From Harriotta raleighana (Eukaryota): a stretch of DNA of 64,000 bases. Below are positions 63,411-64,000 of this stretch, piece by piece; the first letter of the stretch is position 1; each line of letters begins with the position of its first letter. The notes beneath the pieces were generated by a model that ran no database searches, was not told the DNA's origin, and was given only the letters and a program-made list of their open reading frames with translations. The DNA lies in contig JBNZDD010013642.1 of NCBI GenBank assembly GCA_050575255.1, positions 2,137,015 to 2,201,014 of the forward strand, read 5' to 3'. A program made the translations under genes and the position numbers.

Positions 63411-63655
63411 ATTCAATGCACATAGAAGATGTTGAAGCTGTTCAGAAGCTGCAAGATGTCTTGCATGAAGCACTGCAGGACTATGAGGCCGGGCAACATG
63501 GGGAAGACCCACGTCGTGCTGGAAAGCTGCTGATGACTCTCCCGCTTCTCAGACAGACCTCCACCAAAGCCGTGCAGCATTTCTACAACATCAAACTGGA
63601 AGGCAAGGTTCCCATGCACAAACTATTCTTGGAAATGCTGGAGGCCAAGGTCTGA
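63411..63655 (+). CDS. ESRRG: ESRRG last coding exon: LBD C-terminus with AF-2 helix 12, stop TGA at 63653-63655
   Basis: (D)[80 protein letters not shown]; acceptor ccccttgcag|AT. Exon lengths 403+117+111+162+270+245=1308 nt, giving 435 aa. Confidence 0.97.
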
Positions 63656-64000
63656 CTAGAGGAACCTTGGCCATCCCATGAAAGCACACAGAATGGGTTA
63701 GGCCATGTCAAAGGGAAAAAACGTAGGAATTGAATCAAAGTTAACAGTAGTGTTTAATTGAAAAAAAAACTGCACTGATATTTAGCAGTATGACTGTGAA
63801 GCAGCTTTCAACTTCTCATTCTTCTAGGACGTTTTCATGCAGATTTTGCTGTCGAACTTTTTAAATGAGGTCTCTAAGTGAAGAGAGAGAAGGAAGCCAG
63901 CCCTGCCAAAGGATGGGAATCCATAATATGGATGCCACTGAACTAATACCAGAAATAGCCCCATCAACGAAAGGATTCAGACTGACAACTGTTTTATCTA
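63656..64000 (+). other. ESRRG: Proximal ESRRG 3' UTR (continues beyond window)
   Basis: Directly follows the stop codon; no AATAAA seen in the 345 nt within the window. Confidence 0.9.

Follow-up and report, generated by a model that had tools for sequence, protein, structure and literature searches.

The ESRRG gene of Harriotta raleighana ends in a UGA stop codon followed by CUAG, and an open frame continues behind it. This locus raises the question of whether that frame encodes a selected extension of the nuclear receptor ERR-gamma, made by stop codon readthrough, or is just the beginning of a 3' UTR that leaking ribosomes would translate. The window analysed here, a stretch of 64,000 nucleotides, contains an intact multi-exon ESRRG gene, coding for ERR-gamma (NR3B3), since zinc finger (DNA-binding), hinge and ligand-binding exons all lie within it (upstream exons at about 9764, 32830, 35576 and 60150-60420). 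The last coding exon, on the plus strand at 63411-63655 including the stop, follows an acceptor AG at 63409-63410 and encodes the final part of the ligand-binding domain, AF-2 helix included. Its 80 residues match solved ERR-gamma chains at 78 positions (E 1e-46), and the same exon scores lower against ERR-beta (3e-39) and ERR-alpha (9e-30). Read directly from the sequence, GTC TGA CTA G occupies 63650-63659, the stop codon itself being 63653-63655. The leak-prone termination context, as defined in PMC4132726 and PMC5868278, thus spans 63653-63659 on the plus strand. Behind it, 25 sense codons (63656-63730, plus strand) at the start of the 3' UTR form the would-be readthrough tail; they translate to LEEPWPSHESTQNGLGHVKGKKRRN and end at a second in-frame TGA (63731-63733, plus strand). 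In this respect the initial annotation, which had described a GTC TGA CTAG stop and 25 open codons, was exact.

According to published reporter assays, this context is leaky. All 17 human UGA_CUAG contexts assayed in transient reporters, conserved or not, gave readthrough of 1.3 to 6.7%, the control giving 0.7% (PMC5868278), and single-copy reporters showed as little as 0.5% for AQP4 (bioRxiv 10.64898/2026.07.14.738498). The earlier claim that the ESRRG stop is prone to leak agrees with this textbook context, and by analogy some readthrough is likely. We consider it probable that this is a normal stop codon that leaks at about one to a few percent, and that the 26 added residues are an unselected by-product of the 3' UTR. 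At the UGA, eRF1 would face competition from a near-cognate tRNA aided by CUAG, as established in mammalian reporters and extrapolated to this species. A ribosome reading on would add 26 residues behind helix 12 before halting 78 bases later, where the next in-frame UGA lies. The tail would be free to change, through amino-acid changes in a close relative and through frameshifts in distant ones.

Other routes past or around the stop found little support. A stimulating RNA structure 3' of the stop was not found, as folding was no better than that of shuffled sequences (z of -0.17 to 0.26 for three spans and -0.95 for a fourth). Structure-stimulated readthrough of the ACP2 or SACM1L type was thus rejected, with no stable stem-loop and 4 of 4 spans at shuffle level. 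Selenocysteine recoding of the UGA was dismissed because the 9.3 kb that follow the stop contain neither a SECIS nor any other Rfam element at E up to 1. Primate ERR-beta uses a splice donor at its last valine codon; the corresponding site here would be a doubtful donor, given its poor fit to the consensus at +3 and +4 (judged by eye).

Both the motif and the open frame behind it can be compared with chance expectation. UGA_CUAG is present in 23 human genes (PMC5868278); therefore, a genome-wide scan is expected to meet some tens of such stops, though the motif is rare per gene. In this genome, ESRRG alone carries it among 13 terminal nuclear-receptor exons, a comparison that left out four receptor exons (three HNF4-like, one RAR-like) apparently ending at a splice site. 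The two other ERR genes of the genome end in TGA CGG and TGA GCG, without CUA. The 25-codon open frame is ordinary, not unusual: at least 25 open codons follow from 18% of the start points in the 2.4 kb downstream of the ESRRG stop, and also lie behind 4 of the 12 other nuclear-receptor stops of this genome.

A search with the ESRRG C-terminus plus tail returned database proteins that carry W where the stop stands. Twenty of them are of ESRRG type, two with the window's version of the exon (P0002, P0024) and 18 human-type, by which we mean the last-exon version found in solved structures; they are proteins, not DNA, mutually related and so non-independent, and the queries favoured W-L at the stop. 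We rejected these records as proof of readthrough. In P0002 there is a W at the position of the window's second stop too, and another where a later TGA lies in a different frame; some tails extend for as many as 185 residues, well into low-complexity UTR, and the same features are seen in records of ERR-beta type. Because W recurs at later TGA codons and the ERR-beta-type records behave in the same way, the W-bearing records are most likely gene calls made under a code in which TGA means Trp, that is, an artefact of the caller. Though no evidence for readthrough, they expose the sequence that continues the frame past the stop. A tree of 16 last-exon peptides had support at just 2 of 13 inner branches; therefore, fish-type ERR records, which are not assignable to ESRRG or ESRRB, were left out of all counts. 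In this fish-type group the codon that comes first behind the stop encodes L, S or R. When the 41-residue C-terminus plus tail was compared without a profile to 1.84 billion representatives, 4 hits at E up to 0.001 came back, all of multi-stretch chance type, with no ERR protein among them.

The very beginning of the tail is shared. W is followed by L in 20 of the 20 ESRRG-type records, which fits TGA CTA, although leucine has six codons and the bases are visible in this genome only. The LEEPW of the window aligns in frame with LKAPW of P0003 and P0025 for five codons, after which the frame shifts. This match, together with the constant leucine, indicates that the beginning of the tail is old, and a leaky UGA-CUA signal may be old as well. 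The second residue of the human-type records is K in 16/18, N in 1/18 and Q in 1/18; consequently, base +4 after their stop is never G, and the G of CUAG is missing. The third residue is A in 16 of these 18. ERR-beta-type records carry H or Q at the first codon.

Beyond this start, the tails of the human-type records fall apart as protein. When each is ended at its first W possibly standing for TGA, the 18 tails measure 13, 16, 20, 25, 28, 29, 40, 41 or 42 codons; no second stop or common tail end is shared among them, and the window's own second stop, at which P0002 has W, is without counterpart there. Pairs of tails fit one nucleotide string when read out of frame: P0025/P0018 (58 at +1), P0003/P0018 (33 at +2), P0003/P0025 (26 at +1) and P0011/P0003 (30 at +1). 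For five of the six pairs compared, the fit was reached by 0/60 shuffles each; for the sixth, P0011/P0018, it was not significant (6/60 shuffles). Relative to the reference P0070, human-type records read a proximal block at offsets 0 and -1, whereas the window reads it at -2; for a distal block the offsets are 0, -1 and -2. As judged from these back-translated fits, the human-type and window tails are one DNA sequence translated in all three frames. Frameshifting indels in the extension, for which the initial annotation had proposed to look as evidence against its idea, are accordingly what the records contain.

The basic end of the tail has its source in a purine tract at 63710-63721 (plus strand). 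Three-frame translation of this tract yields KGK both in frame 0 and in frame +1, and the KGK of P0025 and that of P0018 lie in frames one base apart. Thirteen of the 18 human-type records read this tract in one frame, ten of them forming one near-identical group, and they have no common stop; P0067 and P0068 regain that frame after a shift. K-rich words occur in several frames of the A-rich ESRRG UTR. The initial annotation had put forward a human tail starting L-x-x-P-W and ending KGK, which would imply deep conservation. Such tails do exist (P0025, P0065) and their first leucine is constant, but the deep conservation of the extension does not follow, as the matching KGKs lie in different frames of one purine tract. 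With frame, length and second stop all varying among the records, the proposal of a conserved functional ERR-gamma extension is left unsupported.

The record P0002 represents a close relative. As far as the second stop its tail has the same frame and length, an indel following only just after it, and it retains LEEP and KGKKRRN. This comparison involves one relative at the protein level, where synonymous changes are invisible: 5 of the 25 residues in the tail are changed, with one base substituted at the least for each, versus 0 of 79 before the stop (Fisher p 0.0006), while past the second stop 0 of 15 pseudo-codons differ (p 0.14 against the tail). The strongest matches of the window to long human-type tails also lie past the second stop, at two conserved, non-coding blocks of the 3' UTR on the plus strand. 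The block at 63781-63810 is compatible at up to 28/30 bases with tails P0018 and P0019 in frame +2, and that at 63894-63923 at up to 29/30 bases with tail P0019 in frame +1; in both cases 0/40 shuffles did as well. Taken together, these matches argue that the ESRRG 3' UTR is constrained as nucleotides, most strongly past the second stop. This trend is opposite to that of AQP4, MAPK10, OPRK1 and OPRL1, in which conservation drops sharply past the second stop (bioRxiv 10.64898/2026.07.14.738498).

Those four genes share with ESRRG of this genome the UGA-CUAG stop (PMC4132726), and the V-stop-L-E context of ESRRG resembles that of human AQP4 (Table S1 of PMC5868278). Across vertebrates their motif, frame, length and C-terminal residues are maintained (PMC4132726), unlike those of ESRRG. 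AQP4 serves as a control in this genome, where it ends in TGA CTAG followed by an open tail of 28 codons (L038:2095-2184; G000:C13716, about 4963494 onward), the length described as typical across vertebrates for an extension conserved to cartilaginous fishes (PMC4132726). Since signal and tail of AQP4 are kept here, the lineage likely uses UGA-CUAG, and a functional tail would have been recognisable. An MDH1-like last exon (L039:935-1140; G000:C13704), of putative MDH1 identity, ends in TGA GCAC; it lacks the CUA context from which mammals obtain peroxisomal MDH1, and is thus of no use as a positive control. A family search did not find LDH genes in this genome.

ESRRG resembles those human UGA_CUAG genes whose extensions show no coding signal (Loughran et al. 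2018, PMC5868278). They have the same stop context, no sign of a conserved tail and comparably long open frames, Table S1 giving 4 to 157 codons. They differ in that the 17 human contexts were assayed, while the ESRRG leak is predicted from sequence in another species. The VDRx form of the vitamin D receptor is similar in being a nuclear receptor with UGA_CUAG right after the ligand-binding domain, with a frameshift between lineages and conservation within one clade at most (PMC5868278). However, VDRx adds 67 residues and is backed by measured readthrough, ribosome footprints and a functional assay, and its PhyloCSF score exceeds that of 97.5% of UTRs in its clade (PMC5868278), whereas the ESRRG tail is predicted from sequence. 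ERR-gamma is moreover not known to have a natural ligand. The F domains of ERR-beta2 and ERR-beta-delta10 are, like the putative ESRRG tail, added right after the same ERR last residues in one lineage, but they arise by primate-specific alternative splicing and not by readthrough, with 67 to 75 residues beyond the short form (PMC4978380). The nuclear import signal of ERR-beta sits in the hinge (PMC4978380), and ESRRG has a basic motif, KYKRR, in this region (32830-32844, plus strand), where ERR receptors likely carry their own import signal. Because of this motif, a role of the tail in nuclear import is unlikely to add much, and the NLS suggested earlier for KGKKRR loses most of its interest.

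Three further explanations have to be weighed against an unselected by-product. It is conceivable that selection acts on the leak itself and not on the tail. UGA-CUA-(A/G) would then have been kept since early jawed vertebrates, humans included, and any bulky tail after helix 12 would damp ERR-gamma, a constitutively active receptor, by weakening coactivator binding as the VDRx tail does. The leucine found first in every ESRRG-type record fits this idea, as does the lack of CUA in both other ERR genes of the genome, with H or Q at that place in ERR-beta-type records. Of 765 changes at +1 to +4, CUAA alone left readthrough undiminished, and in MAPK10 readthrough rose with it (bioRxiv 10.64898/2026.07.14.738498). 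VDRx provides a precedent, as it requires about 100 times more ligand (PMC5868278). However, six codons could stand behind the leucine, whose bases are seen in one genome, and the two residues behind it vary hardly more, as a generally conserved UTR predicts. Moreover, the searches favoured W-L records, the fish-type ERR group varies at the first codon, and a few percent of a weaker receptor would hardly alter output. We thus regard a selected leak as unlikely, though worth keeping in mind. We see less chance still for a functional extension limited to one lineage, comparable to VDRx in Old World monkeys, in which the 26-residue tail with its basic end would be kept within a clade and would alter localisation or activity of ERR-gamma. 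The full CUAG in this genome speaks for it, and so does the close relative, whose tail has the same frame and length, still contains LEEP and KGKKRRN and shows no indel until past the second stop. Yet this is a single relative, P0002 and P0024 lying on a contig of equal length; a fifth of the tail residues differ although no change is seen in the 15 pseudo-codons that follow, the hinge is already basic, and K-rich words appear in several UTR frames.

The opposite deviation, termination that is tight in practice, would have the wider context or the release factors of this species hold readthrough near background, so that no extended protein accumulates. The 0.5% for AQP4 in single-copy reporters and the lack of a stimulating structure at the ESRRG stop are in line with it, and effects outside -3 to +4 are reported as not transferable between genes (bioRxiv 10.64898/2026.07.14.738498). 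Nevertheless, 17 of 17 human UGA_CUAG contexts tested lay above the 0.7% control (PMC5868278), and with the AQP4 signal and tail kept here the lineage likely uses the motif, which makes tight termination very improbable to us. The by-product reading, which we prefer, has its own difficulties. Leucine is constant, the LEEPW/LKAPW start is in frame, and P0002 has no indel before the second stop; most human-type records share one frame through the purine tract, though mainly as one near-identical group, and P0067 and P0068 return to it.

We found no paper on readthrough of the ESRRG stop codon, although a genome-wide table and some supplementary files may still list the gene. ESRRG is absent from the supplements searched of PMC4359377, PMC4207609 and PMC11387191, the genome-wide table of PMC4359377 lying outside that search, and human ESRRG appears neither in the 18 rows of the UGA_CUAG list published as Table S1 of PMC5868278 nor among the six genes named there as known. 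As it stands, the consequence is small: this is another UGA-CUAG stop with an unkept tail, of a class already leaky in human cells without known function. If the UGA-CUA core proved to be selected across vertebrates despite the drifting tail, it would represent a readthrough product acting by mere presence on a metabolic nuclear receptor. Were the bases CTA throughout, human ESRRG may leak too. If the leak is indeed selected, ESRRG would have escaped any screen that asks for the exact CUAG or for conservation of the extension.

Some minor observations concern the UTR and other receptor genes of this genome. The first ATTAAA and the first AATAAA downstream of the ESRRG stop lie at 2.2 kb and 3.1 kb (L009), so the 3' UTR is likely long. 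The blocks at 63781-63810 and 63894-63923, which gave no Rfam match, may serve as sites for miRNAs or RNA-binding proteins. An ERR gene at L003 and L076 (G000:C13209:19200-20500), the third of this genome and strongly diverged, forms a long branch (4.1 changes per column) and has a three-residue insertion ahead of the AF-2 helix. Finally, a COUP-TF-like gene (L065; G000:C13630:1245871-1249062, minus strand) ends in TGA CTTG, a weaker UGA-CU context, followed by 33 open codons.
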